Virus record (IMG/VR): IMGVR_UViG_3300044970_000999
Coordinates: 1-63,492 of that record
Direction: 5' to 3' (one strand)
Length of the DNA: 63,492 nucleotides
Source: a virus
Taxonomy: Duplodnaviria; Caudoviricetes
The translations under genes and the position numbers were made by a program. Each line of letters begins with the position of its first letter. The stretch's first letter is position 1. Shown here one piece after another: positions 1 to 17,200 of the stretch. The notes beneath the pieces are model-generated. The model searched no databases and was not told where the DNA came from. It saw nothing but the letters and a program-made list of their open reading frames with translations.

Positions 1-3000
1 GGATATGTTTTACCATCAATTTTAGTTGTTAACTCAGGTAAGAAACTATCTTGAGGAGTTGGGAATGTTCTGTGCCATACATCTCTATTAATGCCATCTA
101 CACCAAATATATATCCGGTTCCAGCTTGAAGATCTAACATAGCATTTTCTGGTCCTAATCTTTCTATAGAGAAATTACCTTTACCACCTAGATTAATACC
201 AATAACTGGATACTTAATGGCAGACCTACTTTCATCTACATCATTATGCGAGGATATAAATGTATCTTTTTCATATAGATTTATAATAGCTCCATCATAA
301 TTAGTCATATCTACACCTGTAGCTTTTTGCATTAGTTCTCTAAACCTTGGTGTAATTTCTCCTAAAGGTTGACCATTAATTGATTCATTATAATAACCAT
401 ACTTAGTTTTGTTTCCTGGATTAATTACATCAGGTATTTCAACTGCTTGTCTACCTACGTTATTATTTTTATAATCCCATCTTAGTCCAAGACCAATCAT
501 TTTACTAGCATTAGCAGCTTTAAGTGTTTTAGCAGCTTGTTCTTCTAAGAATGGTTTTAGATAGTTAAATAGTTCAAGTTGTTCTTCTTTTGTAAGGGCT
601 CCTTGATTTACATAGATACCTTCTTTAACTTCTTTACCTTTTGGTTTATTTGTTTTTCTTACACTAGGTTGAGTAGGACCTTCACCCTCCTTAAACATTT
701 GGTATCCTGTTTCTAAATCTACATTTTCATAGTATACTGTACCTGCCATATCTGAGTCTGCACCTATCTCCACCATGTCATACAAGTTATTGTCATTCAA
801 TAACCAAGCTGTACTATTTGGCATACCTTGTTGTCTCCCATTATAGAATTCAGAAAACTTAGTATTTGGTGTTGTCCATCTTTTAGGTTTAACACCATTA
901 TTTTTTATTAATACTGAATTATAAAGTTTAACATCTTCATCTAAGATAAGTCTGTCTCCTCTTTTAAATTCTTCAGGTATACTTTGTTTTCCTTCATTTA
1001 TATCAAACTCTTCTTCCCCTGCTTTTTGAAGTTCTATATCCACTTGCGTGGCTATTTGCTCCATGTCACTATTATAATAAATATTACGAGGACTTGCAAA
1101 AATATTAAAATTAGAAGCCTCTAAAGTTTTATTAAAAATAGTAGCAAGGACTAAATCAGAAACATATAAGTTGTCAAACTTTTCATTAGTTTCAATATAG
1201 TTACTCATAAATGCAGGAGTGATATCTTGCATTAAAGATTTATATTGTGTAGAATCTAGTCCTTTTACAAAGCCTGTTGTGGTCTTTCCAATACCATGTT
1301 GATAATACATCATCAATGAAAACACATTGAATAGATCACTGATTCTTTTATCTTTAGAAGCAATCAATGGATCATTTTTAGGATTATCTAATTTTTGTAT
1401 AGAGTAATCCCCCAACTGTCTTATTTGATTAAAATACTCTTGAGCTAAAGCACCCTTTATATCATTTCTATTATTTAGTCTTATAATTTTATAACCATCT
1501 CTATTTCTTTGTGGAGATATCTGAGATAGTATAGTAAATTTTTCAAATAATGCCGGGTAGTTTTCTAATGAATTAAGAAGCTCTAGGATATTATCTCTAT
1601 AACTATATTTAGTTTTACCCATGATATACATAGGATTATAACTATTTAGTAATGCTCTTTCAGATATATATTGTTTATATGCATTTTCCGCATTACCATC
1701 ATTTTTAGCAACAAGACTAATAAAGTAATCATCATTACTAAGAGTATCTATACTATTTTTACTTTCTAGTATTGCTCTTTCTATATTATATCTGTAAAAT
1801 GATCTTAAACTTATAAAAGGATCTTGACCCAATTTAAATGTATCATACCCCCTACCTTCATATGATGTTTCTGGATTCCTATTTTCTAAATAGTTTTTAG
1901 TAGCATAATCAAATTCAATAAGTCTTGTATTTACTATAATTTTATCTTCTTGAACTAATACAGGAGTATTTATATCATTATTTATTTCAATTGTTTTTTT
2001 ATCAGTGCTTTGTGGTAAATTAGATAGTTTACCACTTTCATCATAAAAGTTTGTTTGATAATTTTGATATATATAGTTAATTAGATTATTACCAAAAGCT
2101 CTTGTGAAATTAGCTCTTCCATCAGCACCTCTACCATATTTTAAAATAATTTCAGCTCTTGTATTATCAATACCTCTTTTTAAGAAGCTAGTTATTTTTT
2201 CATTAAGTTTTATTTCAAATAGGGGAGTAACCAAATCAATTGTTAAGTCATCAAACATTAATGAAGATATAACAGACTGCTTTGTCATATATTTTACAAA
2301 GTCTTGATCTATTTCTTCATCTTTTTCAAAAGTTTTTAATACATTTTTTCTATCTTTTGCTTCTTGTACTGTTGTTAGTTTAGATGTATCTGGAGAAAAT
2401 GCTTGTTCAAAGTCACTCATTCTTGAGTATTGATTTTCTAATTCTAAATAATGCAAGAAAATTAAAAGAGCTTTACTACTTGACGCATCCTGAATATTTA
2501 GAACACTATATAAATCAGATTTAGTAATTTTATCTTTATTTGTAAGATTAACTTTTGCTAATTTTTCAATTAAAAAATATAAATTTTCTTTATGAGACAA
2601 CCAATTTGCACCTAATATTCTATTGTAAATTTTAGTACTTTCTTCATCAGCTGATCTGATTCCGGATATTAAATTAGGGTTTATCTTTTTTGTGTTTAAA
2701 GAATTTCTTAAATCTTTTACAGTTGTGTTTTCTATATTTTTACCTATAGTAACAGTAATTTTCAAATCTTCGGGTAAAGATTTTAACGTTGCTGATAACT
2801 TATCATTACTAACATCAGCTATTAATTTTTTTATTTGATCCTCATTTAATTGAGAATTTAATACATCTAAAATTATCTCATTTTTAATTTCAAAATCTTT
2901 TTTAGAACCAAACAATGCATTATTAATAGATGAATTATTCATCTTTTGCATATTTAAATACTTTGCAACTAGTGGTTGATTAAGTAAATAAACTATGTCT

Positions 3001-6000
3001 TCCTGATCCATACCAGCTCTGGTTAAATAACCATAAACTGTCATTGCTTCAGGGACTAATTTTAATTCAAAAGGGAATGTTGCCTTAGCTCTATCCAATA
3101 CTCCTTGTAAAGAGTGAGATGTTGTATCAGATATGTTTTCTCCGGCTACATTATTTTCAGCACCAACTGAAACTACTTCTTCATTATTAGAATTTACTGT
3201 AGTATTAACATCAAATCTTACTTTTAATGGTACTTTTAATGTATCTGAGATTCTATATCTTGCTGGCATTTTTGCACCAGCAGCTTTATATAATGGAATT
3301 GATTTAGTCAATTTAGCTAAAATACCTAATGAAGGTTCAAGAGATAAATTAGCTTCATGAACATATAAATTATATCCAATAGTAAAGTGGCTTGTTGGAC
3401 TTGGAATTTTTTCACCTTTTGTATTTACATCAGAAGGTCTATTATCAACATTTTTAAACTTATCATAACCTGTTCTATTTGCAGTAACGTTTTCCTCATA
3501 CCTATCCATTAAATATGTACCATTAGGTTTGATTAATGTTACTGCATTTTCAGGAAGCATTAATATTTCTACAGATGCTTGTAAGTACTTGTTCTGTAAA
3601 TATTTTTTCTGTAAATTAATTAACTGTCTAGATGTAAGTCTACCTTCAGGAAGCTTGTTTTTCTTCTCAAGTTCTTTAGTCTCTTCTAAAACTTTATAAA
3701 AATTTTCTACTCCTTTGTCAATATAGTTTCCTTCAGAATCTATGTTAGGCATAGACATAAATAATTTATCCCCATCAAAATCTGACCCTGCTTTTGCTAC
3801 AATTTCAGTTGGTGTGATAATAGTATTACCAAATGACTCTGGTAAGAAATGCCAGACTGTAGCTGCTTCAATAGTATTGTGAGCATCATTAGGAATTCTA
3901 GGTCCAAATAGTGTAAGTGATTTTTTATTTTTTGCAAACCATTCAGGATTTTTAATTAATTGATTTAATCTTTCAATTGTTTCAATCTTATTTCCATCTA
4001 AATCTTTTGCATTAAGTAAATTTCTAAAGTCTCCTTGTAAAGCAATTGCAACTTTCATTTCTTCAGATCTAGTCTCTCCATTTATTAAATAAAAAGGAAG
4101 AGTATTAGTACCTAAAAGTTTTTGAATTTCTTTTAATTCAGTAAGACCTATGTAAGGAGAATCCCAAATACCATTTGTAAATGTTGCTGGAGATTGAACT
4201 AATGGCTCACCTTTAGTTTTTTGTTTAACAACCCCTCTTTGTATTAAACTTACAAGTAATTTTTCAATACTATCTGATTCAGGATGCAATGATAAATCCA
4301 TTGCAAGTTTTCCGTCATTATCTGTATTAATTAATTTTATTAAATGTTGTGGTGTATCTCTTTCTGTAAGTTCACTTCTGATTATTTCAACAAACTTTGT
4401 AAAATCACCAATTACTCTACCATCTATTAACTCAATACCTAACCCATTTAGTAGATCTTCTTTTAATAATTTTGAGTATTCTTTAATTGTATTAGAATAT
4501 TCATCTACAACAGCTTTATTATTTGAATTTTTTAATTCTCCATCTTCAAATAAGTTGTCTATTATAATAGCTCTTGTTTGTGTAGCAATTTGAAGTTCAC
4601 CCTTATAGGAGTCATTCATCACTGTTACCTCTTTAAGATTAGCTAAATAAATTGGATTATTTGTAAACTTAAATATATTCTCACCTTCATCATTAACTTC
4701 TGTATTTACAAACTTCATTTCTTTATCTGAAAAAACATTATCAGTTTTTCCATCTGAAGTTAAATAAGCACCTTTTGATCCTGAACCAAATGTTACAAGT
4801 TGAATATTTTGTTTTAACATTAGCTTATGAAGTTTTTCAAGCTCAGAACCAGCTACTGCATTTACACCAGGGATAAGTGGAATAACAGAAAATTTATACA
4901 TTCCTCTTACGGGTAAAACATCATTTTCAATTGTTCCAAAATAATGCAGTTTATAGATTGAATAAAACTGATCTATATCTTTTGATGTAATTGTTTCATT
5001 ATTAATTATTTTTTGATACAATGCTTCTTCAGCCAAGCTCCAACCTCTTCCTGTTTTCTTGAGTGTCCGGTATGCATCAAGTGTAACATATGCCATACCA
5101 TCTGATTCTTTCATTTTTTTATATAACTCAGCATCTGCTGCTGCTTTTTCTTTTGCAACTTCTGGACTAAATCTTTTTAGATAATCTTTTTCCCAAAGTT
5201 TTTGATATTCTTTAATATATATTGATTCTCTTACTGGATCTTCAATAACTGCTGAATTAAGTTTCTCAGAAAAAACAAAGTTATCATAATTAATACCTTC
5301 TTTTTCAGTTAGTTTAGAAGCATATGTTTCTTTATTAAATACATCATTTATAAAGCTTTGTGTTTGTTCATCAAACATAAACCCAATACCATCTGATGTA
5401 AGGCCAGGAATTCTTTTTGACCAGTCTTGTTTGCCGTGATCCCATTGTGCATGATCCCCAAATAATATAATACTTGTCTCATATTTGTGTATAAAATCAT
5501 TAAACATATATGATTTAAGCAATGCATTAACTAATTTATTATCTTTTTGAAATTGTTCAAGAGCATCACCAGACAAGTCTTCTCTTTTAATACCAACTTT
5601 TTCAAATAGAGATTTAGATATATAAGGTATGTTATTAAAGTATAAGGATTTTATATCTGACAAAATTTCATCAAAGTATTTTTTTATATCATTCTTAATC
5701 ATTGTACCAAGCTCTTTATCCACTTCTTTGACATAACTTAATATATCAATATCAGATTGTTGGTCTGCAAGTTCATACAATTTATTTTTTGTATTCTGAC
5801 TTAACATTCCTTTGAATGCTACAAAAGTTTCTCCAGAATAAAGTTCTTTACCGTTTTCAATAACTCTATTATTATATCCTTTAATTCTAAGATATTTATC
5901 TTTATCTGGGCCTCTAAACTTTTTAATTCTGTCATACTCTCCTTGGATATAGCCATACAAGTATCCTACTCTTGCAATTTGCTCACCTTCTTCTGTTAAA

Positions 6001-9000
6001 AATTTATTAGTATTTATATATAAATTTTTATCTGATTCAGAAGCATCAAAACCTAATCTTGCTTGGTCTATACCACCATTAATTTTAACTCCATATGAAA
6101 ACTTTTTATCAGAAGTTCTTGGAAGTTCAGCTACACCTGCTAAACTAAAACTATGGAATTCAAATATAAATTTAGATAGAGGGTCTAGATCAGTTGTGAC
6201 ATTTCCAGAATTATTTCCAAAATAATCTGTAAATGCAAATCCATCTTGAGCAAATACTTCTAAACTTTTATTTTTCTTTTTCTCACCTTTATTTTCAAAA
6301 TTGAATAATGTTGACATTATTTTAAGGTGTCTAACATGAGTATTTATTTCTGGATTAAGATGAGACATACTGTTATATCTTGGATCTGTCCAAAGTTGAT
6401 GCATATATTGAACTTGGTTTAATGCATATGCTGCAGCATGAAGTGAACTCCAGTTAACTTCCTTATAACCAACGGTTTGATTAGATCTAATTATAGCAGT
6501 ACTTGAACTATCATAACCATACATTATTTGTAGTTCAGCTAACCTTTTAAGCTGTGTAAGTTCGCTTACTTTACCTTTTTTACTTTTATCTAATACAGAT
6601 TCTGAGAAGCCAACAGATAAAACTTTTAAAGGATTTTTCTTAAAATTATTAAGTAAAAGTTTTTGTTCTTCAGTTATTGTTTCACCATTAGACTCTAAAA
6701 TATCTAGTTGATTTACTTTTTTAAGAATATCATAGATATATGCTAAACCATAATAACTAACGCTAGTAGGTTTATCTAACTCTTTTTTAATATTGTCATT
6801 GTCCTGTAATTCAATACCCAATATTTTTGCAAATTGTATTTGTTTATTTAAGTTTAAAGTATCACTTTTGCTATCCTTAAAATCTTTTACAACCTCAGAT
6901 AAGTTTAAAGATCTAATGTTATCTCTTGAAACATTTACATATTTACTTTTCTTAAGTGTCTCAAAAGTATTAATCCACTTAGTTACAACATTATCAACTG
7001 CAAGATCTGATTTTTTAACTATAAAGTCTAATTCTTTATCATCTTCTCTATAGTATGCATAAAGTTGTTGGTAATCAATCTGAGGTTTTGCAAAGTCTTG
7101 AAAAAATCCTCTTGCTAAATCAAATTCAAATGTATTAACTTCAGCTCCTGATTTATTAGGATCAGGAAATTTATATTTAAATAACTGTTTTAATTCTGGA
7201 AACTTTTCTGATTCTTCTTTTAACCTTGTATATGCTTCATTTCTATCTCTTATACCCCCTATTGTTTTAGCAACTATAGCAAAAGTTTTACTAAATTCTG
7301 CTCTCTCTATAATTCCAAATCTATCTTTTACAAAATTACCTTCTGAATCTACTTTCAATAATGTTTTTAAAACAAATATTGTTTGTTTACTCATTGTTTG
7401 TTGTAAAGATTGTTTTCCAGTTTTTTCATTATTCTGCTCTAGACCTCCTTTGTTTTCTTCTTCATCAACTAGTTCTCCATTTTCATCTAATTCTTGATCT
7501 TTATTTTGAATAACTGAATCATCTTCAACAGCATATTTTTTTCTAGATACTTCATAAGCTGTATTTTCCATATGGTATTTTATTATACCACTTTTTTCAT
7601 CACCCCAGTTTTTTAATGTAGTTTGTAATATTCTTACATTATCTCTAATAGTTTCTTGATCTTGATCAATCTCTACTTTATCTAAGACAGGTTGTTTTAT
7701 GAGTTCAGTAAAAACTTTAGCCTTAGCTTTTTTATAATTATCAAATTGAGTTTGTGCATCTTGTGATCTTGTAACTAGAACAATGTCTATATTTCTTCCA
7801 TTCTTTTTTATTGTCCCATGTTTGTAAAAATCACCAACTATTCTAACACTATCTTTATAATCCTCTCCTCTTACTCTTTCTCCTCTTTTTGTAGATGGTA
7901 ATAAGTTATTAAAGTCCCTAACTTGTGATGTTAAAAAGAAGTATTTATTTTTTCCATCAGAAGCTTTCATTACAGCAATGGCATTACTTTCTATCTCTTC
8001 TAATGTCTTTAACTCATTAAAATCTTTAACACCCTCTAGTGTTTTAAGTTTAGCTTCCTCTTGTCTTAAAATTTCTTCAAATTTTTCTCTAGCATCATTG
8101 TATAAATATGATTTATATTTTGGATTCATGAGTGCTGAAAGACTTACGCCAACACTTTTACTTTCTTCCTGAAGCTCATTTATTTTTTCAGCAAAAAAAT
8201 TGTCAATAGAATTAGAAATCAATAGACCATCCCCAGGAGATAATGCATCTTGTGATGGATATTCAACCTGTCTTGGTCCTCTATCTAATTGAGTAAACAT
8301 TTGATTATCAATACTTGGAGAGTACTTATTAAAGTCTCCAATATATAGTTCATTAAATAATCTTTGAGCCATTGGCGAGTTAAGACTATTTATAACTGTA
8401 TCTTGTTTTTTAAACTTCTTAAGCACCTTACCAAATAGTTGTTTTAAGAACTCAACTATTTTTCTAAATAAAGTATTTCTTTTTGGAGCTGCTTGTTTTG
8501 CTTTTCCTGTTTTAACATAGTTACGGAAATCTTCTGCAAGCATTTCTTCTAATTCTCTAAAGCTCATTTTACTATAAGGAGTATTTCCTTTAGCATCTTT
8601 GTAGTTCTTGAGCTCATTGTATAAATCTAACTTTTGTTGTTTAGTTAAAAACAACTGGGAGAATACGTGCCATGCTTCATGATAAATAGTAAGGTTTTGA
8701 TATATACTACCCATCTTTTTATTAACCTCTAACCTACCCATAATACTTGTATCAGCAAGAGTAGCACCTGCTACAATAAATCTTGCATATACATCTGAGT
8801 TTACAATGTTTGCCATATGACCAAACTCAATGAGTTTTCTCATTGGCTCCATCTCTTTACTATTCCACCAACTCTTAGCTTGTCTAACTTTTAGTGGACT
8901 AATAAATTCTGGCTTTATGCCTGACCTTTCAAAATACTTTTTATTTTTTTCAGATATTTTTTCTTCTTTAAATATATCATTTACTGGAGTATTATTCTCT

Positions 9001-11258
9001 GGAGAATTATTTTTAGAAGCAATACCCTCACTTATCTGTTCTTCTATAGGAGGATTAGTTTTTTCAGAAGCTGTTTTTTGAGAAAATTTAGTTTTATTAA
9101 TTTCTTTTAAAATTAAATCTTTTTGATTTTGATTTAAAACTGAATTATATCCCTCTGAAAGTAATTTAAATATATCTTCAGCAAATTCCCTAGTTTGATT
9201 TTTACTATAGTTATTTGTTATCTCTTCAATAAAATATTTAGTAATTAAAAAACTATCGTAAGGATTTGCTTGGTCAATAGTAGATTTGTATGCATCTGAT
9301 GTTGCAGTATTTACTATTCTATATGCTTCCTCTTCATATACTGTTGGTTTTGGTGGAGCAAAGTCTTCATCAAAAGGATCTTGCTCTTTTAAAATCTCTT
9401 TACCAAATGAGCTATTATCTGTAGTAAAATTGACTACATAATTATAAAATCCTGGATCTGCATTTGTAAGCTCTATATCTGACTTTAGACCTTTTATAAA
9501 ATCAAAATAATCTGCATTTCTATTAAAGCCTGTACGTTCTGTGTTTAATCTCATATAAACACCACTTGCTAAAGCTGTATTTTTAAAAATAATTTGTGTT
9601 CTATTAGAATTTTTCTTTAATCCTTTTTGTGTAAGATATTCTACTATATACTCTTTGTATTTATTTATTACTTCATCTCCAGCTTTTTTAAGAGCCTCTT
9701 GATCTAATTTTATTTTTACATCAAGTTTCTTTGCATCTTTTCCAAAACCATCATATAAGTTAAAGTAAATTGATTTACCATCTTTACTATAAAATAAATC
9801 ATACTGTTTACTAGTTCTTCCTAAATCAAATCCTTCAAAAAACTGATTGGTATATTCTTTTTTATCCTCATTCTTGATATTTTTATTAGTCAATACCTCT
9901 GCAATTTCTAATGCTAAGTCATCAGTGATAAGTGGTCTATTTATAAAAAAGTCATTACCATTAATTTTTATAAATGCTGATCCACTTTTAAAGTTTTTTT
10001 GATCAAATGGAATTGTATAAATACTCTTTAAAATTTCAGATACTTTATCTTTAAAAGATGGAAGATTTATTAAATCATTTAAATATATTTTTGTAGCTGA
10101 TAAATTAGTGGGAACACCATTTGTAACATTTGTTATTGGTAAAATTTTGGTTTCTCCATTTAATATTTCATTTTGAATTGTATACAGTTCTTCAAGATCC
10201 TTATTTCTTTGTTCTCTTACAAGTTTTGTATATTCTTCTTTTGTTCCATCTATTTCTGGATTGTAGGTATTCTCAACAAAAGCTTCAACAGATATTAATA
10301 AGTCTTCAGTATTGTACATATTGGTAGCAGAATATTCACCATTTTTTTCTCTTATGGTTCTCATAAACTGATACACTGGTTTACCAAGTTCTGCTGTTGT
10401 TATATTACCCTCTTCATCAAAGTAAAGAGTATTTCCTTTATCATCACTAATTAATAATATTACTCTTTGATTAGCTTGTTTAATGTCTTCAGAAACTTTT
10501 AAATTTCTATCAACTATAGCATTAGACTTATCTATTTCACTTTGTGTAGATTTATCAAGATATTTTAAATTCTGAGGTGTTGCATACGCACTTAATGTGA
10601 TAGCTTTAAACACTAATCTTTTTCCTTGATATACTATTCCATTTAATGGATTTGTAGTATTCTGTATTTCTTTTATTCTATCAAAAGTCTTAACCATATA
10701 TGTAAGTTCTTGGTTAAGATCTTCAATTGATAAAAAAGGATTCTTTTCTTTCTTATTTGGATCTAATTTTACATATGCTTGAGAAGTACCACCATAGGCA
10801 CTTAGTGTACTAAACCTTTCTGGTAGTCTTACAACTGGCGGTTCAATTGAAGGATTTTGATCTAAACTTATTTCATTTTTTTGTTCATTTTCTATTATAT
10901 CTTTTTTTTCTTGTAACTCTGAAATATCACTTAAGGTATTAATGATTGATGCAACACCAGTATCTGGATTTTTAAATTCTGTATTTAAATCATCTAGTGC
11001 ATCTAATCTTAATCCTTCTTTTAATTTTAATTGTTCAAAAAAATTATTTTTAACATCAATAATTATTCTTGGTATAGACTGTAGAAATTTTGCTGCAACT
11101 TCTGGTGAACTTTGCTCAGAAAAATCTTTGAAAAGATTTTTCATATAATCCATAGCATCAAATGTGCTATTTGATTTTAGAGCTTGGTTCATTGAACCAC
11201 TTACATCAGAATATAGTTCAGCTATAATAGCGTCATCATTAATGCTACAAGTTATCAT
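1..11258 (-). CDS. Giant virion RNA polymerase polyprotein (crAss-like vRNAP, phi14:2 gp66-like) with zincin and AlkB-like domains; 3'-truncated by window edge, >=3752 codons; missing from ORF track
   Basis: ATG at 11258 overlaps the upstream TAA (TAATG) and begins MITCSINDDAIIAELYSDV. Hand translation in the same frame gives IYHEAWHVFSQ (HEAWH 8667-8681), SDGMAYVTLDAYR (~5070-5105), GPRIPNDAH (~3880-3905), AKAGSDFDGDKLF (DFDGD 3768-3782) and an AlkB-like domain at the left end. Six antisense shadow ORFs keep a constant register with this frame. I did not translate every codon. Confidence 0.93.
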   Translation of the reverse strand, partial: MITCSINDDAIIAELYSDVSGSMNQALKSNSTFDAMDYMKNLFKDFSEQSSPEVAAKFLQSIPRIIIDVKNNFFEQLKLKEGLRLDALDDLNTEFKNPDTGVASIINTLSDISELQEKKDIIENEQKNEISLDQNPSIEPPVVRLPERFSTLSAYGGTSQAYVKLDPNKKEKNPFLSIEDLNQELTYMVKTFDRIKEIQNTTNPLNGIVYQGKRLVFKAITLSAYATPQNLKYLDKSTQSEIDKSNAIVDRNLKVSEDIKQANQRVILLISDDKGNTLYFDEEGNITTAELGKPVYQFMRTIREKNGEYSATNMYNTEDLLISVEAFVENTYNPEIDGTKEEYTKLVREQRNKDLEELYTIQNEILNGETKILPITNVTNGVPTNLSATKIYLNDLINLPSFKDKVSEILKSIYTIPFDQKNFKSGSAFIKINGNDFFINRPLITDDLALEIAEVLTNKNIKNEDKKEYTNQFFEGFDLGRTSKQYDLFYSKDGKSIYFNLYDGFGKDAKKLDVKIKLDQEALKKAGDEVINKYKEYIVEYLTQKGLKKNSNRTQIIFKNTALASGVYMRLNTERTGFNRNADYFDFIKGLKSDIELTNADPGFYNYVVNFTTDNSSFGKEILKEQDPFDEDFAPPKPTVYEEEAYRIVNTATSDAYKSTIDQANPYDSFLITKYFIEEITNNYSKNQTREFAEDIFKLLSEGYNSVLNQNQKDLILKEINKTKFSQKTASEKTNPPIEEQISEGIASKNNSPENNTPVNDIFKEEKISEKNKKYFERSGIKPEFISPLKVRQAKSWWNSKEMEPMRKLIEFGHMANIVNSDVYARFIVAGATLADTSIMGRLEVNKKMGSIYQNLTIYHEAWHVFSQLFLTKQQKLDLYNELKNYKDAKGNTPYSKMSFRELEEMLAEDFRNYVKTGKAKQAAPKRNTLFRKIVEFLKQLFGKVLKKFKKQDTVINSLNSPMAQRLFNELYIGDFNKYSPSIDNQMFTQLDRGPRQVEYPSQDALSPGDGLLISNSIDNFFAEKINELQEESKSVGVSLSALMNPKYKSYLYNDAREKFEEILRQEEAKLKTLEGVKDFNELKTLEEIESNAIAVMKASDGKNKYFFLTSQVRDFNNLLPSTKRGERVRGEDYKDSVRIVGDFYKHGTIKKNGRNIDIVLVTRSQDAQTQFDNYKKAKAKVFTELIKQPVLDKVEIDQDQETIRDNVRILQTTLKNWGDEKSGIIKYHMENTAYEVSRKKYAVEDDSVIQNKDQELDENGELVDEEENKGGLEQNNEKTGKQSLQQTMSKQTIFVLKTLLKVDSEGNFVKDRFGIIERAEFSKTFAIVAKTIGGIRDRNEAYTRLKEESEKFPELKQLFKYKFPDPNKSGAEVNTFEFDLARGFFQDFAKPQIDYQQLYAYYREDDKELDFIVKKSDLAVDNVVTKWINTFETLKKSKYVNVSRDNIRSLNLSEVVKDFKDSKSDTLNLNKQIQFAKILGIELQDNDNIKKELDKPTSVSYYGLAYIYDILKKVNQLDILESNGETITEEQKLLLNNFKKNPLKVLSVGFSESVLDKSKKGKVSELTQLKRLAELQIMYGYDSSSTAIIRSNQTVGYKEVNWSSLHAAAYALNQVQYMHQLWTDPRYNSMSHLNPEINTHVRHLKIMSTLFNFENKGEKKKNKSLEVFAQDGFAFTDYFGNNSGNVTTDLDPLSKFIFEFHSFSLAGVAELPRTSDKKFSYGVKINGGIDQARLGFDASESDKNLYINTNKFLTEEGEQIARVGYLYGYIQGEYDRIKKFRGPDKDKYLRIKGYNNRVIENGKELYSGETFVAFKGMLSQNTKNKLYELADQQSDIDILSYVKEVDKELGTMIKNDIKKYFDEILSDIKSLYFNNIPYISKSLFEKVGIKREDLSGDALEQFQKDNKLVNALLKSYMFNDFIHKYETSIILFGDHAQWDHGKQDWSKRIPGLTSDGIGFMFDEQTQSFINDVFNKETYASKLTEKEGINYDNFVFSEKLNSAVIEDPVRESIYIKEYQKLWEKDYLKRFSPEVAKEKAAADAELYKKMKESDGMAYVTLDAYRTLKKTGRGWSLAEEALYQKIINNETITSKDIDQFYSIYKLHYFGTIENDVLPVRGMYKFSVIPLIPGVNAVAGSELEKLHKLMLKQNIQLVTFGSGSKGAYLTSDGKTDNVFSDKEMKFVNTEVNDEGENIFKFTNNPIYLANLKEVTVMNDSYKGELQIATQTRAIIIDNLFEDGELKNSNNKAVVDEYSNTIKEYSKLLKEDLLNGLGIELIDGRVIGDFTKFVEIIRSELTERDTPQHLIKLINTDNDGKLAMDLSLHPESDSIEKLLVSLIQRGVVKQKTKGEPLVQSPATFTNGIWDSPYIGLTELKEIQKLLGTNTLPFYLINGETRSEEMKVAIALQGDFRNLLNAKDLDGNKIETIERLNQLIKNPEWFAKNKKSLTLFGPRIPNDAHNTIEAATVWHFLPESFGNTIITPTEIVAKAGSDFDGDKLFMSMPNIDSEGNYIDKGVENFYKVLEETKELEKKNKLPEGRLTSRQLINLQKKYLQNKYLQASVEILMLPENAVTLIKPNGTYLMDRYEENVTANRTGYDKFKNVDNRPSDVNTKGEKIPSPTSHFTIGYNLYVHEANLSLEPSLGILAKLTKSIPLYKAAGAKMPARYRISDTLKVPLKVRFDVNTTVNSNNEEVVSVGAENNVAGENISDTTSHSLQGVLDRAKATFPFELKLVPEAMTVYGYLTRAGMDQEDIVYLLNQPLVAKYLNMQKMNNSSINNALFGSKKDFEIKNEIILDVLNSQLNEDQIKKLIADVSNDKLSATLKSLPEDLKITVTIGKNIENTTVKDLRNSLNTKKINPNLISGIRSADEESTKIYNRILGANWLSHKENLYFLIEKLAKVNLTNKDKITKSDLYSVLNIQDASSSKALLIFLHYLELENQYSRMSDFEQAFSPDTSKLTTVQEAKDRKNVLKTFEKDEEIDQDFVKYMTKQSVISSLMFDDLTIDLVTPLFEIKLNEKITSFLKRGIDNTRAEIILKYGRGADGRANFTRAFGNNLINYIYQNYQTNFYDESGKLSNLPQSTDKKTIEINNDINTPVLVQEDKIIVNTRLIEFDYATKNYLENRNPETSYEGRGYDTFKLGQDPFISLRSFYRYNIERAILESKNSIDTLSNDDYFISLVAKNDGNAENAYKQYISERALLNSYNPMYIMGKTKYSYRDNILELLNSLENYPALFEKFTILSQISPQRNRDGYKIIRLNNRNDIKGALAQEYFNQIRQLGDYSIQKLDNPKNDPLIASKDKRISDLFNVFSLMMYYQHGIGKTTTGFVKGLDSTQYKSLMQDITPAFMSNYIETNEKFDNLYVSDLVLATIFNKTLEASNFNIFASPRNIYYNSDMEQIATQVDIELQKAGEEEFDINEGKQSIPEEFKRGDRLILDEDVKLYNSVLIKNNGVKPKRWTTPNTKFSEFYNGRQQGMPNSTAWLLNDNNLYDMVEIGADSDMAGTVYYENVDLETGYQMFKEGEGPTQPSVRKTNKPKGKEVKEGIYVNQGALTKEEQLELFNYLKPFLEEQAAKTLKAANASKMIGLGLRWDYKNNNVGRQAVEIPDVINPGNKTKYGYYNESINGQPLGEITPRFRELMQKATGVDMTNYDGAIINLYEKDTFISSHNDVDESRSAIKYPVIGINLGGKGNFSIERLGPENAMLDLQAGTGYIFGVDGINRDVWHRTFPTPQDSFLPELTTKIDGKTY
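3..630 (-). other. AlkB-like 2OG-Fe(II) dioxygenase domain inside the vRNAP polyprotein (C-terminal part beyond window)
   Basis: Translation: GIYVNQGALTKEEQLELF...YGYYNESINGQPLGEITPRFRELMQKATGVDMTNYDGAIINLYEKDTFISSHNDVDESRSAIKYPVIGINLGGKGNFSI...LDLQAGTGYIFGVDGINRDVWHRT. HxD lies at 240-248 and the distal His at 72-74. It is collinear with E. coli AlkB motifs as I recall them (DACLINRY, SLHQDKDE, PIVSVSLG, HGDVVVWGG, YHG). Confidence 0.88.
8520..8700 (-). other. Zincin metallopeptidase motif within the vRNAP polyprotein
   Basis: HEAWH (HExxH) followed downstream by ELEEMLAEDFRNY, a candidate third-ligand helix. Zincin domains are known in crAss-like RNAP-associated proteins. Confidence 0.8.
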
Positions 11259-14200
11259 TATAAACAGTTTTTTGTTTTATTCAATAAATTTTTTCTATTT
11301 TCTTCAGGAGTATTTTTAATACCCTTTTCATAAGCTTTAGTTTTGCTATCTTGATTTTGTAAGAAATTATTTACAGTAACTTGACTTTCGTTAAGTATTT
11401 CTTTTTCTGTATCTGTTACTTCAACAGTAGGTGGAGTAATATTACCTGAGTCCATTTCTATTTTAGTTATATAGTTATCTGCAAAAGTATCAATTTTAAC
11501 TGTTATTGCCTTACCTCTTGGAGGAGATAATACATAAGAATCTTTAGTTTTTTCTTTGACTTTATATGGTGTATTATTATTTTTCTTTCTTGAATATACT
11601 ATATCACCAACATTAATATCTGTATCAAATTCATCTATAAATTCTTCAACAATTTCTGATTCTTGTACTTGCTCAACTATATCTATAGGCATTTCATATG
11701 TATCTATTAATGCCTCTTTAAACTGTTCAATGTCTAATATTTCCTTTAAGATTTTAGTTTTTCTAACATCACTAGTAAATTCTTTATTATATTCTGAATT
11801 TAAGTTATTTAATTTTATATTTAATAAATCAATAGCTTGTTTAGTTCTTCCTGTTTTAGAAATTTTTTCAGCATCCTCAAATAATTGTACTAATGAAACA
11901 TCATTAGAATTTATTTTAGTTGCTTTCATTAAATCAAATATATTTTTTTGATACTCACGAAAATCTTTAGATTTTTCAACACTTGATGTTTTTAAATATT
12001 GAATTCTTTTTACACCCTCATGAATTAATTCTGATGCTTCAGCCATTGACAAATATTTTATATCAGCATCTGATATATCTGTATCTGTTAAGAGACCAGA
12101 TTCTTTCATAGTTTCAATAGCAACAATTTGATTATCTGTTGGACTTCTATCTACTGCATTTTTATAAAAACTATTATGTTGATCAAAATAATATTTAAAA
12201 TTTGAATCAGATTCAAGTTGTTCTTTTATAAAATCACTTTGTTCATTAAATATTGATTTATCTACATTATCAAATGAAACATTAGACTTAATTTTTCTTA
12301 ACTTATCTGATTGTTCTTTTAAGTTCTTTTCGGAAGAATTTAAATTCTTTTTGTATTTGTCTATTACTGATTTAATTTTTTCTTTGCTAGTATACTGTTT
12401 TAAGTTTTTATTTTTAGATTCATATTGCTCAATAATATCTTTTGGAATAGATATATTTTGTTTTACTGCATTACCAATTAAAACTTTTATAATTGCTAGA
12501 TTTTTAACATTTATGTCACTTAACTCATCAGTTATTTCAGATAGTCTTTCTCTAATATTGTTAATTCTATTTGCTATTGCTCTTTTACCACCAGGTTCAA
12601 GTTCACCTAATTTTTTGGGGAAGAGTTTATCCATCTCTTCTTGAACTGACTCTCTATATAATGGAACTAAGAAATCAAACTTATATTTATTACCAGTTAT
12701 AGTAAATTGTTTTTCATTAAATGGTTTTTTGGTTTTTGGATCTATTTTTTTGTTTATTACAATTTTTCCATCTTCATCTACTTTATACTCTAATTCATTA
12801 AAGAACTGACCAGACAAAGGTTTACCAGCTTCAATTACTTGATTAGTTTTTTTGTTAGACTCTCTTTGGATAGGAAGCATTGCTATTCCAGCAACTTTTC
12901 TATCTATCATTTTTTCTAACATTGTAGCATATGCAGCAGTTTGAAGTGTATACTCATTTCTCTTAGTAAACTTTTTATTAGTTGTGCTTAAATTATTAAA
13001 GTTTAAAAATTTATTAGTTTCTCCAGACTTAATATCTACTACATAAATACCATCTTTATCTACTAAAATAAGGTCAATTTCACCAGCTATTCTATCTTTC
13101 TTACCATCTTGATGAACTATATCTGAATCATATACAATAAGGTCTCTACCTACTATGTATAATTCCCCAGAGTCCACTCTTTTTTTAATGGTATCTAAAT
13201 ACTCTATTAAACTATCATATGCTTCTCTTGTAATTATTTCTTCATTAAACTCTGGTTTTTTACCAGACTCCAGATAGTCTTTAGCTAAGTCAAAGAAATT
13301 ACCAGCAATTCTACTATCTTCATATGTATTTTCTGCAAAAAATGTATCTATTATATTCTTAGTAGTATTCTTCTTAGTAGCTGTATCAAAATTATCTTTA
13401 GTAGTTGGTTGAGCTGTACCTTCTAAAGCAGCTAGTTCTGCATCATAGTTAACAAGAATATTTCCTTTAGAGTCCGTAGTAACAGTATAATCTTTACTTA
13501 AAGTTTTATATATATTAGGTACCATTACACCTTTTCTCATTTCTGAAAAAGAGTATAAACCTTTTACGCCAGAAGGTAAATTTTCTAATATATACTTATA
13601 TGAATTAGTAGCTATTTTTTTATTTTGATATTCCTTTTTAGTACTTACTTCATAAACGTTAATATATTTTTTACCATCTATGTCTATTATATTTCCTTGA
13701 AACTTGAATATCGGAACATTTGAGAAAGTACTTTTTTTATCATATACTTTTAATGTATACTCATCATTTTCAAGAGTAACTTCTGTTGTATAATCATTTT
13801 TATTAAAAAATGAAGATATTTCTTGTCTTCTTTTTTCTATATCAGCTTTAGCATCTGTAGAAACAGGAGCTGTATAAGCACCATCAATTTTATTTTGAAT
13901 TTCTTCAGCCTGATCAAATAAAGCTTGTTGTTTAGCAAGATTCTTTTCTTTATTTGCTTTTGTTAAAATTTCATTCTTTTGCCCTTCTAATTCAATTTGC
14001 TCAGCTGTCATATTAGGCAGAGCATTAAGTTCTTGTTGAAGTTTGTTAAAGAATATATCATTAGTTCCAGGGAGAGCTGCTTCACCAGTATCTGGAAGAG
14101 AACGTAATCTATCTACAAACTCTTTTATAGATGCAGGATTTAATCCTTTTTTAGCTATTGTTTGTTTAAAAATAGTATCTACTTGTTCTTGACCTTGATA

Positions 14201-17200
14201 TTCATATGTTTCATCAATAACATCTTGTATAGCTTGTGTTGTTCTTCTATGAAACTTACCGTTTATTCTATATGCCTTTTGACCCTTTTTTAACCCTGTT
14301 ACTTCATCATCTTCAGTAAGTTCTACTCCTTTTTCTACTTTACTTTGAGCTTTAAATATCTTTTGTATACTCCTTACAGCAGATTTAATTTCTTCTGGAA
14401 AATTAGCAAACTGTCTAGCACTAATAATATTATTTAAATTTTTTAAATTTAAACTTAATTCTTTATTTTTTTCTTCGTACTTTTTAATTTGTTCTTTTTC
14501 AGTTTCAGGATCTAAAAAATTTATTTCTTCATTATTTGAAGTAATTTGATTATTAACATCATCTCTATATGCAATTAGTTGCTCTAATGTTTTTGTATTA
14601 GTATTTACTTCTACCCCTCTAATATTCATGATAGTTTCTTGCTTAGAAAGCACAGGTCTATTTGCATTATTATACTCATCAAAGTATTTTTTGTTCTCTG
14701 GTCTAGAGTACCATTCTTCAAATGTTTTATTATTTAAATCTTCATCTTCTAATAGAGCATTTTTTTCAGAAGGACTAAGTTTATTAACATATTCTTTTTG
14801 ATAATTATTATACAGTTCTTCTTTAAATTCAGAAAGATCTGGAGTATCTAAATTAGACTCTGGAGTAACATCTTCATATGGAATCTCTAATTCCATATTT
14901 TCTTTTGAAGCTACATATGCTTCCTTAACTTCCTCTATTTTATCATTATAAAAGTTAGTAATTTTTTCAATCTCTACTGGATCTGATACTTTATCTATAG
15001 TATAGATTCTTGCAGAAGAATATCTTTGTGTTGTATCTTCACTATCTAAAATATCTCCTTCTTCATTTTTTAATCTGAGTTGTCCAACTTTGTCTTTATA
15101 TACAGTTACGGTTTCTAATTCAGAAGTAATAGAATCATCTATTTGCTCAGTATATTCAGTTTCTGACAAAGTTTTTAAAGGAAGACCAGCTGCATCAACT
15201 TCACTGATGTTATAAGTTGCTGTACCATCAGGATATAATTCTACTCTAGCTTTATAGTTTTTATTTCCAATTTTTATTGTTCTTGTGCTTGTATTAGATG
15301 CTGCAGGCATAGTTCCAGTTTCTCCTGTAACTCCTTCTTCTTGTGCAGCTTTTATTTCTTCATCACCAATGAATTTTCTTCCACGTTTTGTATTACCATT
15401 TTCATCTTCTAAAATTTCAGTAAGTGTAGAAATAGCTTCTCTAAATTCACCATATTGTGGAATAACACCATTTATTTCTAATTTTTTTTCTATTTCATCT
15501 CTATCATTAGTGGAGCCTTTTTCTTGATAAACTTTTAGTTCAGCATACTGATCATTTTGAATTTCTTGTGATAAAGATTTTAATGATATTTTTCCCTCTA
15601 AATTGTTTATTTGTGTCTCTACATCTTCTTTAGGAAGTGCATCAATTTTTTCTTGTTTTTCTTTCTCTAATGCATTTATTTGTTGCTGATATGCTTCATC
15701 AATTATTTCTGATTTATTTGGATTTAAATCTTCTTTTAACTCTTCATACTTTTTAAAATAATCCTGATATATTTGAGAATATTCTTTTGAGCCAATAGGA
15801 TATATTTTTTTATTTATATCATCATATATTTCAGTTGGAGGTACTCCATCTGCAAAATAATTTAACATGTCTTCAGTACTTATGAATAAACCTTTATTTG
15901 CAAGAGCATTTAATAAAGCATTAGCTCTAATATTATCCATTTCTTCACGGATAATTTTTTCATAGTACTCAATTTTTTTAGCAGTAACTTTTTTAAGCCA
16001 ATCATTATTTCTCCTTACAGCTTCTAAGAAAGCCATTGGATCATTTAAAACATCAACATATTTTGAAATTTTTGTTTTTTCTATATCTAAGTCATAGTAG
16101 TCTTTCATCAACTCCCATGTTTCATCTATATCTTCATTAAAAATTTCTTGACCATTTTGTTTTGCGTGTGTTTTTAAATAATTAGTGTATGAGTTTCTTA
16201 AATTTTTTAGTAACTCATCTCTTTTTTGTGTATCATTAACAGCACCAAATTCATCCTCCATGTACTTTAATACTTGCTCATCGGTGTATTCAGTTCCTGT
16301 TTCTGCTTTTAGTTTTTCTTTAATTAAACCAACATATTCTTCTCTTCTTTGGAAGATGTCTAATGCTCTATATTGTTCAGCATAATCTTTTGTTAGATTA
16401 ATTTGCTCTTGAAGCATTTGTATCTTAGCTGGATTTTTTGTAGTTTCTTTTTCTAAAGCAAGTTCTTTTTCTAAGAGATTAATTTCTTCTAGCATATCTC
16501 CGGTTGGAACACCTACTCCATCAATAGCTTCTTTAGTTTCATTAAAAGGTCTTATAGGGTTAAACAATAAATTTCTTTTTCTATTGCTTATATTTTTTAG
16601 TTTTTTATTGTTATTATACTTTTTATTTATTTCCGATCTTCTATATAATATGTCATCATAAGTTTCATTAAAGAAAACTATGTTTCTATTAACTGTTTCC
16701 CATGCATGATATAATATTAATTTATCTTGGTATTCCGGGTCATCTTCCTTAAGATCACTTACATTAATTGGATTAGGATTTTTTCTTTCTACTCTTTCGT
16801 ATAGATTTTTAATTTTATTTAATCTTTCAATGGAAGAATCTACCCTTGCTCTATATTTATTAACTTGATCTTTTTCTATACCAACAGCTTCAGCAAATTC
16901 ATCATCTGTTAAATTGTGTAAGTCTTTTAATTTTTCAGAAAAAATACCAAATGTACCTGTTCTTTTTAATAATTGAACTTGTGATATATATGCTTCTGTT
17001 TCAGCATCTAATGCTTCTTTTTTAGTTCCTTTTTGTTTAGTAGCTGCTACTTTTTCTTGAACACCTAAATTTTGAGTATAACCATTTAAAAAAGTTTCTA
17101 AATTAGTATTATTAAGTTCATTAACTAAATTTTGAGCAACAGTAGTTTGTGCTTCTTTCCATCTTGTATACTCTTCTTTATTAAACATTCTATTATAAGT

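Follow-up and report, generated by a model that had tools for sequence, protein, structure and literature searches.

The DNA analysed here, called the window below, is the whole 63,492-nucleotide (nt) stretch of the IMG/VR virus record IMGVR_UViG_3300044970_000999, a 63.5-kb viral contig that is estimated to be 53% complete and in which the large genes all lie on the minus strand. This report concerns one segment of a giant gene of the window, P0001 (Table 1), in which a small protein domain, the payload, is enclosed by two conserved motifs that we call brackets: M1 on the N-terminal side and M2 on the C-terminal side. The unit spans VSTDAKADIE...YDAELAALE, and is a discrete cassette with sharp edges at the brackets that is exchanged in frame. 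It occupies a slot between two conserved flanks of the P0001 protein. The peptides that a preliminary description of this DNA had quoted were all found in the translation of P0001, at the places given there.

The phage is crAss-like. A PHROGs search of the record found crass-type genes for a terminase (phrog_6681), a portal (phrog_6547) and a major head protein (phrog_11589), and the muzzle gene matches the Pfam family crAss_MUZ (PF25731) with 99 bits against a cut-off of 27. The features by which Crassvirales are recognized, a muzzle protein with the crass fold accompanied by terminase, portal and capsid genes, are thus all present in the record. The sequencing runs that contain the window are labelled lake or freshwater metagenomes. 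The muzzle gene is followed by giant open reading frames (ORFs) of 1,877, 1,484, 1,055, 1,006, 2,583 and more than 3,752 amino acids (aa), the 2,583-aa member of this series being P0001.

Contents of the slot in related proteins and lake metagenomes

A homologue search with aa 1560–2110 of P0001 returned 157 proteins at E ≤ 0.001, and the slot comparison covers the 120 of these that were listed, each compared in three pieces (N-flank, payload and C-flank). Both flanks are kept in 118 of the 120. Similarity to the payload is seen in only five, P0051 and P0064 (95%), P0083 and P0084 (99%) and P0030 (32%), so that the homologues do not all carry the same segment; three of these five proteins have the flanks, and P0083 and P0084 share the cassette only. 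The aligned homologues include both empty and alternative alleles: 27 of the 118 slots are empty (25 extra aa or fewer), and the other 91 hold 26–735 extra aa once unaligned host residues have been corrected for. Some empty sites resemble fused bracket ends, as in P0022 (...KADVEG-TTQPTT) and P0120 (...AELAAL-STDTKADV...), and other slots hold tandem arrays of two to four units, each with its own bracket pair (P0004, P0025, P0034, P0037, P0055, P0061, P0063 and P0066). Searches for the C-flank locus found four loci in viral_contigs with the single protein as query, four with alignment A1, and four in metagenome_contigs.

The closest relatives, P0002, P0003 and P0004, have flanks 90–100% identical to those of P0001 and unrelated slot inserts of 119, 117 and 738 aa, which share the boundary residues ...APVS before the insert and ELAALEG... 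after it, with breakpoints known at the protein level only. Among 357 pairs of homologues with a C-flank identity of at least 90%, 245 have no slot match of at least 80 aa and 56 have slot contents at least 80% identical. Conversely, 12 of the 89 pairs whose slot contents are at least 85% identical have a backbone identity below 65%. Similar backbones thus hold different slot contents and similar contents sit on divergent backbones, and the history of the payloads is therefore uncoupled from that of the backbones.

The cassette of the window is itself found elsewhere. Over 445 nt (13421–13865) the window is 100% identical to the viral contigs L001, L002 and L003, with no nucleotide similarity in the flanks; beyond these 445 nt, blastn of the window against the three contigs gave only short matches to the bracket-coding DNA of an adjacent cassette. 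In L001–L003 the cassette stands second in a tandem pair, within an ORF of more than 3,700 aa that is open at both ends and shows no other relation to any of the window's giant proteins. The L001 record is that of a crassvirus with a muzzle gene. The unit also recurs at 97–99% aa identity in P0051/P0064 and in P0083/P0084, the last two of which carry it in yet another unrelated backbone, which makes four backbones in total. A HEAFH zincin-like motif is present in the giant ORF of L001, about 150 aa downstream of the cassette.

Contigs of four lake or freshwater runs were compared with positions 12900–14400. Because these contigs are short, with breaks at repeats and only rough depths, evidence is taken solely from what they bridge, and gaps in contig cover and per-contig depths are not read as evidence of absence or of copy number. 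In run X15, contig record 16 (1,166 nt) is identical to the C-flank over 546 nt, to 13445, continues with 298 other letters, and resumes the match at 13828–13865. Its junctions are the inner edges of the M2 and M1 cores (Table 1). Record 20 of the same run reads N-flank, M1, 374 other letters and a second M1, a sign of a tandem array on that backbone. In another lake sample, a near-identical backbone is thus found with other payloads, and the junctions fall within bracket-coding DNA. The cassette is also seen as a contig of its own in three runs (records 9, 25 and 4; 389–442 aligned nt, with ends at or within the brackets), in contigs from three runs M1 begins 2–10 letters after M2 has ended, which represents a tandem junction, and many additional contigs match the two brackets only. 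In run X13 the cassette contig has a depth of 140.6 against 7.8 and 6.4 for the flank contigs, a contrast that is at most compatible with the presence of the cassette in other backbones as well.

The same data raise the question of whether the mosaics could be assembly chimeras, joined through short repeated brackets. The brackets are indeed repeated and of high depth in lake metagenomes, and the short contigs do end at or within them. Nevertheless, the same cassette arrangement is present in an unrelated giant ORF in three different viral contigs, five runs (possibly including its source) contain every or almost every word sampled from the arrangement of the window, the records of the P0002 cluster come from three sources and two contigs, and the frame is kept in every arrangement examined. 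The repeats do not exceed about 50 nt, and typical sequencing reads are longer than that. An artefact of this kind is extremely improbable. The swappable slot that the preliminary description had proposed is borne out by the protein and the DNA comparisons alike, through its empty, alternative and tandem fillings and through junctions that fall inside the brackets.

A second variable position is found in P0001, occupied by an insert without the KADIE/YDAEL brackets (Table 1). The insert is missing from P0004, whose flanks at this place are 98% and 93% identical and which reads ...DRDEIE-TV-TVYKDK; P0003 has two bracketed cassettes there as an alternative, and P0002 has the same insert as P0001. 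This confirms the variable position that had been suspected to start at STNDRDEIEKKLE. Almost all other homologues have 7–16 aa at the second slot, and no relatives of the insert were found in viral_contigs.

Table 1. Features of P0001 and of neighbouring genes in the window (nucleotide positions are those of the window; residues are those of the P0001 protein).
Feature	Position	Strand	Residues	Description
Host gene P0001	11258-19009	minus		2,583-aa giant protein, downstream of the muzzle gene; largest complete minus-strand ORF
Mobile cassette unit	13421-13864	minus	1716-1863 (148 aa)	VSTDAKADIEKRRQE...NYDAELAALE; N-bracket, payload and C-bracket
N-terminal bracket M1	13820-13870	minus	1714-1730	APVSTDAKADIEKRRQE
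M1 core	13826-13849	minus		KADIEKRR
Payload	13451-13819	minus	1731-1853	minimal GNAT-fold domain
Payload peptide	13577-13666	minus	1782-1811	YINVYEVSTKKEYQNKKIATNSYKYILENL
Degenerate GNAT cofactor loop	13610-13627	minus	Q1795-N-K-K-I-A1800	
C-terminal bracket M2	13418-13450	minus	1854-1864	NYDAELAALEG
M2 core	13424-13447	minus		YDAELAAL
N-flank	13871-14332	minus	1560-1713	conserved hairpin AYRINGKFHRRTT (14237-14272) and helical region
N-flank peptide	14237-14272	minus	1580-1591	YRINGKFHRRTT
C-flank	12680-13417	minus	1865-2110	PD-(D/E)xK nuclease core, as assigned by motifs and profiles
C-flank peptide		minus	1899-1907	SRIAGNFFD
C-flank motif	13070-13096	minus		DRIAGEIDL
C-flank peptide		minus	1975-1980	AGEIDL
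C-flank motif	13022-13042	minus		VVDIKSG
C-flank peptide		minus	1992-1996	DIKSG
C-flank motif	12929-12946	minus		LQTAAY
Second variable insert	15113-15487	minus	1175-1299	KKLEING...SITSELE; without KADIE/YDAEL brackets
Peptide at second insert	15476-15514	minus	1166-1178	STNDRDEIEKKLE
Muzzle gene	35410-40884			crAss_MUZ
ORF directly after muzzle	29777-35410	minus		1,877 aa
Neighbouring ORF	3-11258	minus		more than 3,752 aa; extends past the window edge

Bracket motifs and their codons

The consensus of M1 is [S/T]DIEAKKADIE(R/K)RRQEEL and that of M2 is INAKYDAELAAL(E/G). M1 is predicted to be helical (aa 1718–1737 in a model of the cassette, and likewise in a 551-aa model that includes the flanks). 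A nucleotide pattern that allows all synonymous codons for KADIERRRQE matched 74 stretches in viral contigs, as against five in 596 billion bases of prokaryote genomes. These five (L134–L138) are all in contigs of metagenome-assembled genomes (MAGs) labelled Nitrososphaeraceae, Saccharibacteria, Gammaproteobacteria or Bacteroidetes, and may be binned phage contigs. In total, 84 non-identical M1 instances are found in 77 loci, which lie on viral contigs and on at most five contigs of prokaryote MAGs; the longest ORF concerned has 4,183 aa. A strict M2 follows within 700 aa in 50 of the 84 instances, with 23–320 aa between the motifs; the 44 payloads of at least 40 aa fall into 37 BLAST clusters, and six of the 50 complete units are bare, with 23–31 aa between the motifs (bare units occur, for example, in P0066, L026 and L047). 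The statement in the preliminary description that variable inserts of further giant phage proteins are enclosed by KADIExRRQE/YDAELAAL pairs also holds. The muzzle gene is present in three of five further bracket-bearing records, the other two being only 21–22% complete.

The brackets are conserved in their nucleotide sequence beyond what the peptides demand. The 31 non-identical INAKYDAELAAL instances, in 30 loci, have position-specific rare codons when compared with the codon usage of the same ORFs (the p-values are without phylogenetic correction). The Ile of M2 is ATC in 19 of 29 instances (background 0.10, p = 7e-13). Of its Leu positions, one has CTA in 19 of 31 (background 0.12, p = 1e-10) and the other has TTA in 26 of 31; at one Ala position GCA is used in 26 of 31, and the remaining Ala positions are GCT in 27–29 of 30–31. 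In M1, Ile is ATA in 76 of 84 (background 0.41). With codons thus fixed, bracket DNA is kept alike across unrelated payloads and hosts, as recurrent recombination or selection would give, and the synonymous conservation points to recombination in bracket DNA.

The bare units invite another reading, in which the brackets are a small helical hairpin that forms a domain in its own right, with a function such as binding to DNA, to the inside of the capsid or to the ejection channel, and that tolerates payloads at its tip and does not serve as a recombination handle. The existence of bare units and the conservation of the peptide motifs far beyond that of the payloads would agree with such a domain. 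It leaves unexplained, however, both the position-specific rare codons and the junctions exactly at the inner bracket edges on identical backbones, and no known family matches the hairpin in Pfam searches of ten slot contents and ten bracket neighbourhoods (the latter gave 0 families). We regard this reading as very unlikely. PHROGs searches of eight bracket-neighbourhood pieces matched only the L047 nuclease and, in L026, a family of unknown function.

Fixed rare codons could also mark the brackets as cis sites of an enzyme-driven in-frame insertion by a homing-type nuclease or a recombinase, a coding counterpart of integron cassettes or miniature transposons. The appearance of cassettes at new positions in non-homologous proteins, and at a second site where nearly every homologue is empty, is what such a dedicated mobile element would produce, and the most used slot adjoins a nuclease domain. 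Against this, neither a duplicated target site nor a gene for an accompanying enzyme was found, the breakpoints fall within shared sequence in the way that homologous exchange predicts, and the L001 cassettes are not adjacent to a nuclease. An imperfect 12-nt inverted repeat between M1 and M2 DNA (pair I7, 83% complementary) might have been counted in its favour, but the 531 AT-rich bases concerned contain 25 pairs of this quality in all, so that it is not significant, and it was rejected as evidence. An element of this kind seems quite unlikely.

The M2 core YDAELAAL is also part of an unrelated repeat, ...GTDVQAYDAELAALAGLTSAADK..PYFTGS, which accounts for roughly 60 of the 85 pattern matches in viral contigs (among L014–L093). 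The ORFs concerned are about 180–2,400 aa long, mostly below 1,000 aa, on contigs with a GC content of 0.27–0.72, and sometimes have the repeat twice. These matches, whose context is different, were set aside; one such ORF was scanned and gave no Pfam match.

Fold of the payload and position of the slot

The payload of the window belongs by its predicted structure to the GNAT fold. An AlphaFold2 model of the cassette, built with a 14-row alignment (A2), has a pLDDT of 84.6 and a pTM of 0.77, with the order of elements H-E-E-E-E-H-E-H-E-E-H. Foldseek against the Protein Data Bank (PDB) gave 49 matches at E ≤ 0.001 (best E 1.3e-5; TM 0.45–0.58), and the matches listed are GNAT folds: the C-terminal domain of ICL2, Rv1916, AtaT/TacT/KacT, Naa60 and NatD, the best of them, the ICL2 domain, being listed in complex with acetyl-CoA. 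By sequence, Pfam Acetyltransf_1 is matched by seven of 14 family members (best E 5.1e-6), the family profile finds the acetyltransferase 3dsb among PDB sequences (E 1.9e-4), and the nearest clusters in the ESM Atlas are small viral GNATs (score 0.93). Because the model, Foldseek, the family profile and the ESM Atlas agree, the payload fold is taken to be GNAT, as the preliminary description had surmised in speaking of a GNAT-like cassette. Membership by sequence profile is reached through the relatives only and not through the window's own sequence. The family is small: a scan of 1.84 billion representative proteins with the payload gave only 18 matches at E ≤ 0.001, mostly within proteins of 780–4,825 aa.

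The payload may be an active acetyltransferase. In the GNAT superfamily, the pyrophosphate-binding loop of motif A is defined as R/Q-x-x-G-x-G/A. Payload relatives carry a canonical loop, for example RGKGIG, and share with the superfamily this type of loop as well as the beta-alpha-beta core topology that is also seen in the payload. The window copy and its closest relative read QNKKIA, with Lys in place of the first Gly. The payload differs from the superfamily further in having only about 120 aa, without the usual N-terminal helices unless the bracket helix substitutes for them. By fold its nearest neighbour is the C-terminal acetyl-CoA-binding domain of ICL2, a Mycobacterium tuberculosis protein; set against this domain, Rv1916 and the tRNA-acetylating toxins AtaT/TacT/KacT, the window copy stands apart by its loop, and the TM-scores are just those given above.

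The gene P0001 is CpG-depleted throughout, with 21 CG in 7,752 nt and an observed/expected ratio of 0–0.5 per 300-nt bin. The preliminary description had counted four CG in 13441–13740; the count is correct, and all other 300-nt bins of the gene have 0–2. The excess has a Poisson p of 0.005, uncorrected for about 26 bins, and was graded there as weak evidence, a grade that we keep.

Other slots hold other payloads. The commonest family at the main slot, in 18 of 118 slots (P0004–P0006, P0008, P0017–P0019, P0050, P0055, P0063, P0067, P0072, P0092, P0093, P0096, P0098, P0103 and P0106), has the signature ...(V/I)P(F/V/I)Y(R/K/L)(S/T)(S/T)xG(T/Q)..K..G.W(Y/T)P(F/M)FG...WL(V/N)K, and the three members scanned gave no Pfam match. 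The slots of P0004/P0054 have the look of a PP2C phosphatase (ADGMGG), with a weak PP2C_2 match (E 5e-4) below the Pfam cut-off. By motif only, the P0091 payload looks like a ParB/sulfiredoxin-type domain (DGNHRANLL), and the P0086/P0114 payloads look like GNATs with an intact VGKGQGS loop and have no Pfam match at E ≤ 0.01. Profile support among these three calls is found for PP2C only. In the ten slot contents scanned, Pfam matched only PP2C_2 and ANIS5_cation-bd (E 0.0084), both below their cut-offs. A second junction peptide, ...ETT(K)AGS(V/G)GVGGDV..., separates the units of the four-unit array of P0004 and precedes the GNAT relative in P0125 (aa ~1000–1015); it may be another type of bracket.

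The C-flank, by its motifs and profile matches, is a RecB/Cas4-like PD-(D/E)xK nuclease. Nucleases of this kind are defined by a catalytic D...(D/E)-x-K and by Q-x-x-x-Y. The corresponding residues in P0001 are EID1979, D1992-I-K1994 and Q2023-T-A-A-Y2027, which are columns D420, D433, K435, Q464 and Y468 of alignment A3 and are invariant in 16 of 16 rows. Pfam PDDEXK_1 (PF12705) matches with 30.6 bits on aa 1865–2110 and 26.1 bits on the whole protein (cut-off 22), and phrog_298, an exonuclease family, matches the C-flank with E 2.5e-10. These Pfam and PHROG matches begin at profile positions 83–152, which leaves the N-terminal parts of the profiles unaccounted for. In the N-flank, residues Y21, H28, R29, R30 and T32 are invariant in A3. 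The A3 profile against PDB sequences gave coiled-coil noise only (best E 0.015). The 551-aa model has an overall pLDDT of 69.9, with confident flanks, and its best Foldseek matches are the nucleases of the Cas4 family, AddA/AdnA, Exo5, MGME1 and RecE, at E 1.5e-3 and weaker.

The preliminary description had placed the cassette within the nuclease domain. When the N-flank and C-flank were folded as two chains, the ipSAE was 0.74 (median of three runs), against 0.18 for the best of three controls; the mark is reached by 58 of 80 solved complexes and by two of 110 mismatched pairs, a calibration that is only rough since our own alignment was used. The runs agree in at least 69% of contacts, with a partner pLDDT of at least 62. 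In this model the hairpin residue H1587, part of the HRR motif, lies against R1973 and A1975 next to the catalytic EID, and aa 1705, just before the slot, touches aa 1877, just after it. The flanks are thus predicted to pack into one nuclease unit, which would make the slot an internal loop, and the model supports, short of proof, the insertion of the cassette in a surface loop of one structural unit made of N-flank and nuclease core. In other proteins cassettes lie between domains, in L001 upstream of an HExxH motif and in L047 after the nuclease core. The core in L047 is of the PD-(D/E)xK type (phrog_298, E 9.5e-5), and the unit that follows it closely is a bare one.

The position of the slot bears on a further alternative, in which the giant proteins are polyproteins. 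The junction ...AELAAL(E/G) followed by (x)TD(x)KADIE... would then be mainly a protease site, at which a phage or host protease frees the payloads after packaging or ejection, and recombination would merely follow from the conservation of the brackets. Tandem units are joined by a highly conserved junction peptide, whose A-L-E followed by G resembles the S/A/G-x-E sites that we take to be those of giant-phage prohead proteases. The zincin-like HEAFH motif downstream of the same cassette in the L001 giant protein would also fit, as would the autoproteolytic release of domains by metallopeptidase domains that has been proposed for polyvalent proteins (Iyer et al., 2017; PMC5512222). A cleavage site, however, needs neither synonymous-site conservation nor a pair of fixed-sequence N- and C-terminal helices, no protease domain was detected in P0001 with Pfam, and, with the cassette inside a predicted single structural unit, cuts at both brackets would split the nuclease. 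We consider the polyprotein reading unlikely. These alternative readings are not all mutually exclusive.

Proposed mechanism and comparison with known systems

We think it likely, if well short of certain, that the cassette is a member of a large family of in-frame, horizontally exchanged cassettes that occupy loops and linkers in the giant proteins encoded after the muzzle in crAss-like phages. Each cassette would consist of an M1 helix, a variable payload (23–320 aa in single units, with arrays of up to 735 aa) and an M2 helix. Co-infecting phages would recombine homologously within the bracket-coding sequences of about 30 nt and 39 nt, so that payloads move in frame between giant proteins, in an exchange that would be passive but highly effective. 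The basic M1 and the acidic M2 helices may pair as a stalk or clasp, bringing the payload ends together, so that any fold could be plugged into a loop. The scaffold protein would be packaged in the virion and ejected into the cell, with the payload riding along as an early effector; the GNAT payload of the window might bind an acyl-CoA-like ligand or acetylate a host target. The comparisons suggest that phages share a pool of protein modules, which are probably delivered into hosts.

P0001 is probably a virion cargo or a transcription-associated protein, and a precomputed Pfam match to Sigma70_r3 is present in five of its listed homologues. In the phage PhiCrAss001, mass spectrometry detected the large proteins encoded after the muzzle in virions, and their extrusion into the host is presumed (PMC10172136). 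By analogy, the position of P0001 after the muzzle gene and the mass spectrometry of PhiCrAss001 (PMC10172136) suggest that P0001 may be packaged in the virion and injected. Two other giant ORFs of the window (Table 1) have enzymatic domains as well. The 1,877-aa ORF directly after the muzzle has Phage_lysozyme, SLT transglycosylase and VanY D-Ala-D-Ala carboxypeptidase domains and is probably a cell-wall-degrading cargo protein. The ORF of more than 3,752 aa has an effector-type 2OG-Fe(II) oxygenase (AlkB-like) domain near its end, at aa 3548–3734 of that ORF, with an E of 2.9e-9 and a score that exceeds the Pfam cut-off.

A number of results weigh against the exchange of delivered, loop-inserted effectors as we picture it, or against single steps of it. 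As regards exchange, no recombinase or homing enzyme was identified, the synonymous conservation could instead reflect very recent common descent or a translational role of the rare codons, and the control with backbone motifs comprised only 2–7 sequences and is not decisive. As regards the pairing of the brackets, M2 is predicted as a short helix of eight residues (aa 1857–1864) with a pLDDT of about 59, and the insert is of low confidence in the 551-aa model. The position within the nuclease domain depends on one interface prediction that used our own alignment: Pfam and PHROGs searches of the N-flank did not recognize it as nuclease and matched no family, Foldseek of the 551-aa model returned nothing at E ≤ 0.001, and the cassettes between domains in L001 and L047 mean that the loop location is not general. 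As regards the payload, no GNAT family was found in Pfam for P0001 (E ≤ 1) or for its 167-aa cassette (E ≤ 10), and the fourth position of the cofactor loop, which is Gly in 12 of the 14 rows of A2, is Lys in the window copy and in a relative 67% identical to it. The missing own Pfam match and the missing first Gly together mean that the payload may be ligand-binding or inactive. For packaging in the virion, tblastn of P0001 against 50,697 phage records gave no match at E ≤ 1e-5.

A bolder version of the proposal may be put forward, which we regard as doubtful. Freshwater crAss-like phages would share a community-wide library of cassettes, integron-like at the protein level, in which a universal two-helix bracket plugs any fold in frame into loops or linkers of virion cargo, so that the fold is packaged and injected without needing its own targeting signal. 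The bracket DNA, with its fixed rare codons, would be the dedicated exchange site, maybe recognized by a phage enzyme such as the adjoining PD-(D/E)xK nuclease, and early-acting effectors would be reshuffled among unrelated proteins and phages on ecological time scales.

Crassviruses are among the most abundant phages, and their giant cargo proteins are largely uncharted. The bracket is a conserved and easily searched marker, and as such a direct handle on the dark matter of crassvirus giant proteins, each bracketed segment being a candidate stand-alone effector domain with defined edges. If the exchange of cassettes is as we propose, it would offer a route to diversify injected phage proteins without new packaging signals. 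The bracket may also serve protein engineering as a natural plug-in module for the insertion of domains into loops.

In the openly accessible main texts that were consulted, among them a review of the Crassvirales (PMC10136315), no description was found of the brackets or of this exchange of cassettes, supplements and subscription papers lying outside that coverage. Within the same scope we found neither a two-sided conserved bracket, nor its fixation at the nucleotide level, nor empty, alternative and tandem alleles at one slot, nor an identical cassette in unrelated proteins.

A published counterpart is the class of polyvalent proteins with variable effector domains in phages and conjugative elements (Iyer, Burroughs, Anand, de Souza and Aravind, 2017; PMC5512222). 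As described there, these are giant phage polypeptides that unite a number of effector-type domains of unrelated kinds and are presumed to enter the cell along with the DNA; they include GNATs, nucleases, peptidases and ParB-like domains, and their complement varies between relatives (PMC5512222). The main text of that paper has 0 uses of the word 'linker', and no conserved two-sided bracket, cassettes of identical nucleotide sequence across unrelated proteins, or empty or tandem alleles of one slot were found described in it, its supplements not being covered; its two GNAT families come from other phyletic contexts (PMC5512222). With a nuclease and a GNAT in P0001, and PP2C_2-, GNAT- and ParB-like and many unknown payloads in other alleles, the proteins described here have the multi-domain character of polyvalent proteins.

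In-frame mobile insertions such as inteins resemble the cassette in being inserted in frame, in having empty and occupied alleles and in spreading between unrelated host genes. An intein is defined by an N-terminal Cys or Ser, a C-terminal His-Asn followed by Cys, Ser or Thr, and a Hint fold. The unit of the window begins V-S-T-D and ends A-A-L-E, its payload has a GNAT fold, and other payloads are unrelated; the cassette thus lacks the Cys/Ser start, the terminal His-Asn and the Hint fold, and comes with many unrelated payload folds. Since the payload folds are so many and so unrelated, the mature protein presumably retains the insert. We rejected an intein or an intron as a reading in view of the lack of splice-type residues, the open frame and the diversity of payload folds.

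Phage tail fibres and spikes exchange their receptor-binding domains at short conserved crossover points that code for linkers, and the cassette would share with them short, conserved, linker-coding crossover sequences for the exchange of modules between phages. The modules exchanged in tail fibres, however, are C-terminal host-recognition modules of external virion proteins, with no paired N- and C-terminal bracket and no internal enzymatic payload of a putatively ejected protein. In polymorphic toxins (CdiA, Rhs and MuF-type), a conserved delivery scaffold receives effectors from a community-wide pool, exchanged at a conserved junction motif. The cassette system is like these toxins in its conserved scaffold, in its variable putative effectors, which would be drawn from a community-wide pool, and in the proposed recombination at a conserved junction. 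Polymorphic toxins, however, have a C-terminal variable domain, a single junction and an immunity gene, whereas the payload of the cassette is internal, is bracketed on both sides, possibly within a loop of another domain, can form tandem arrays and has no separate partner gene.

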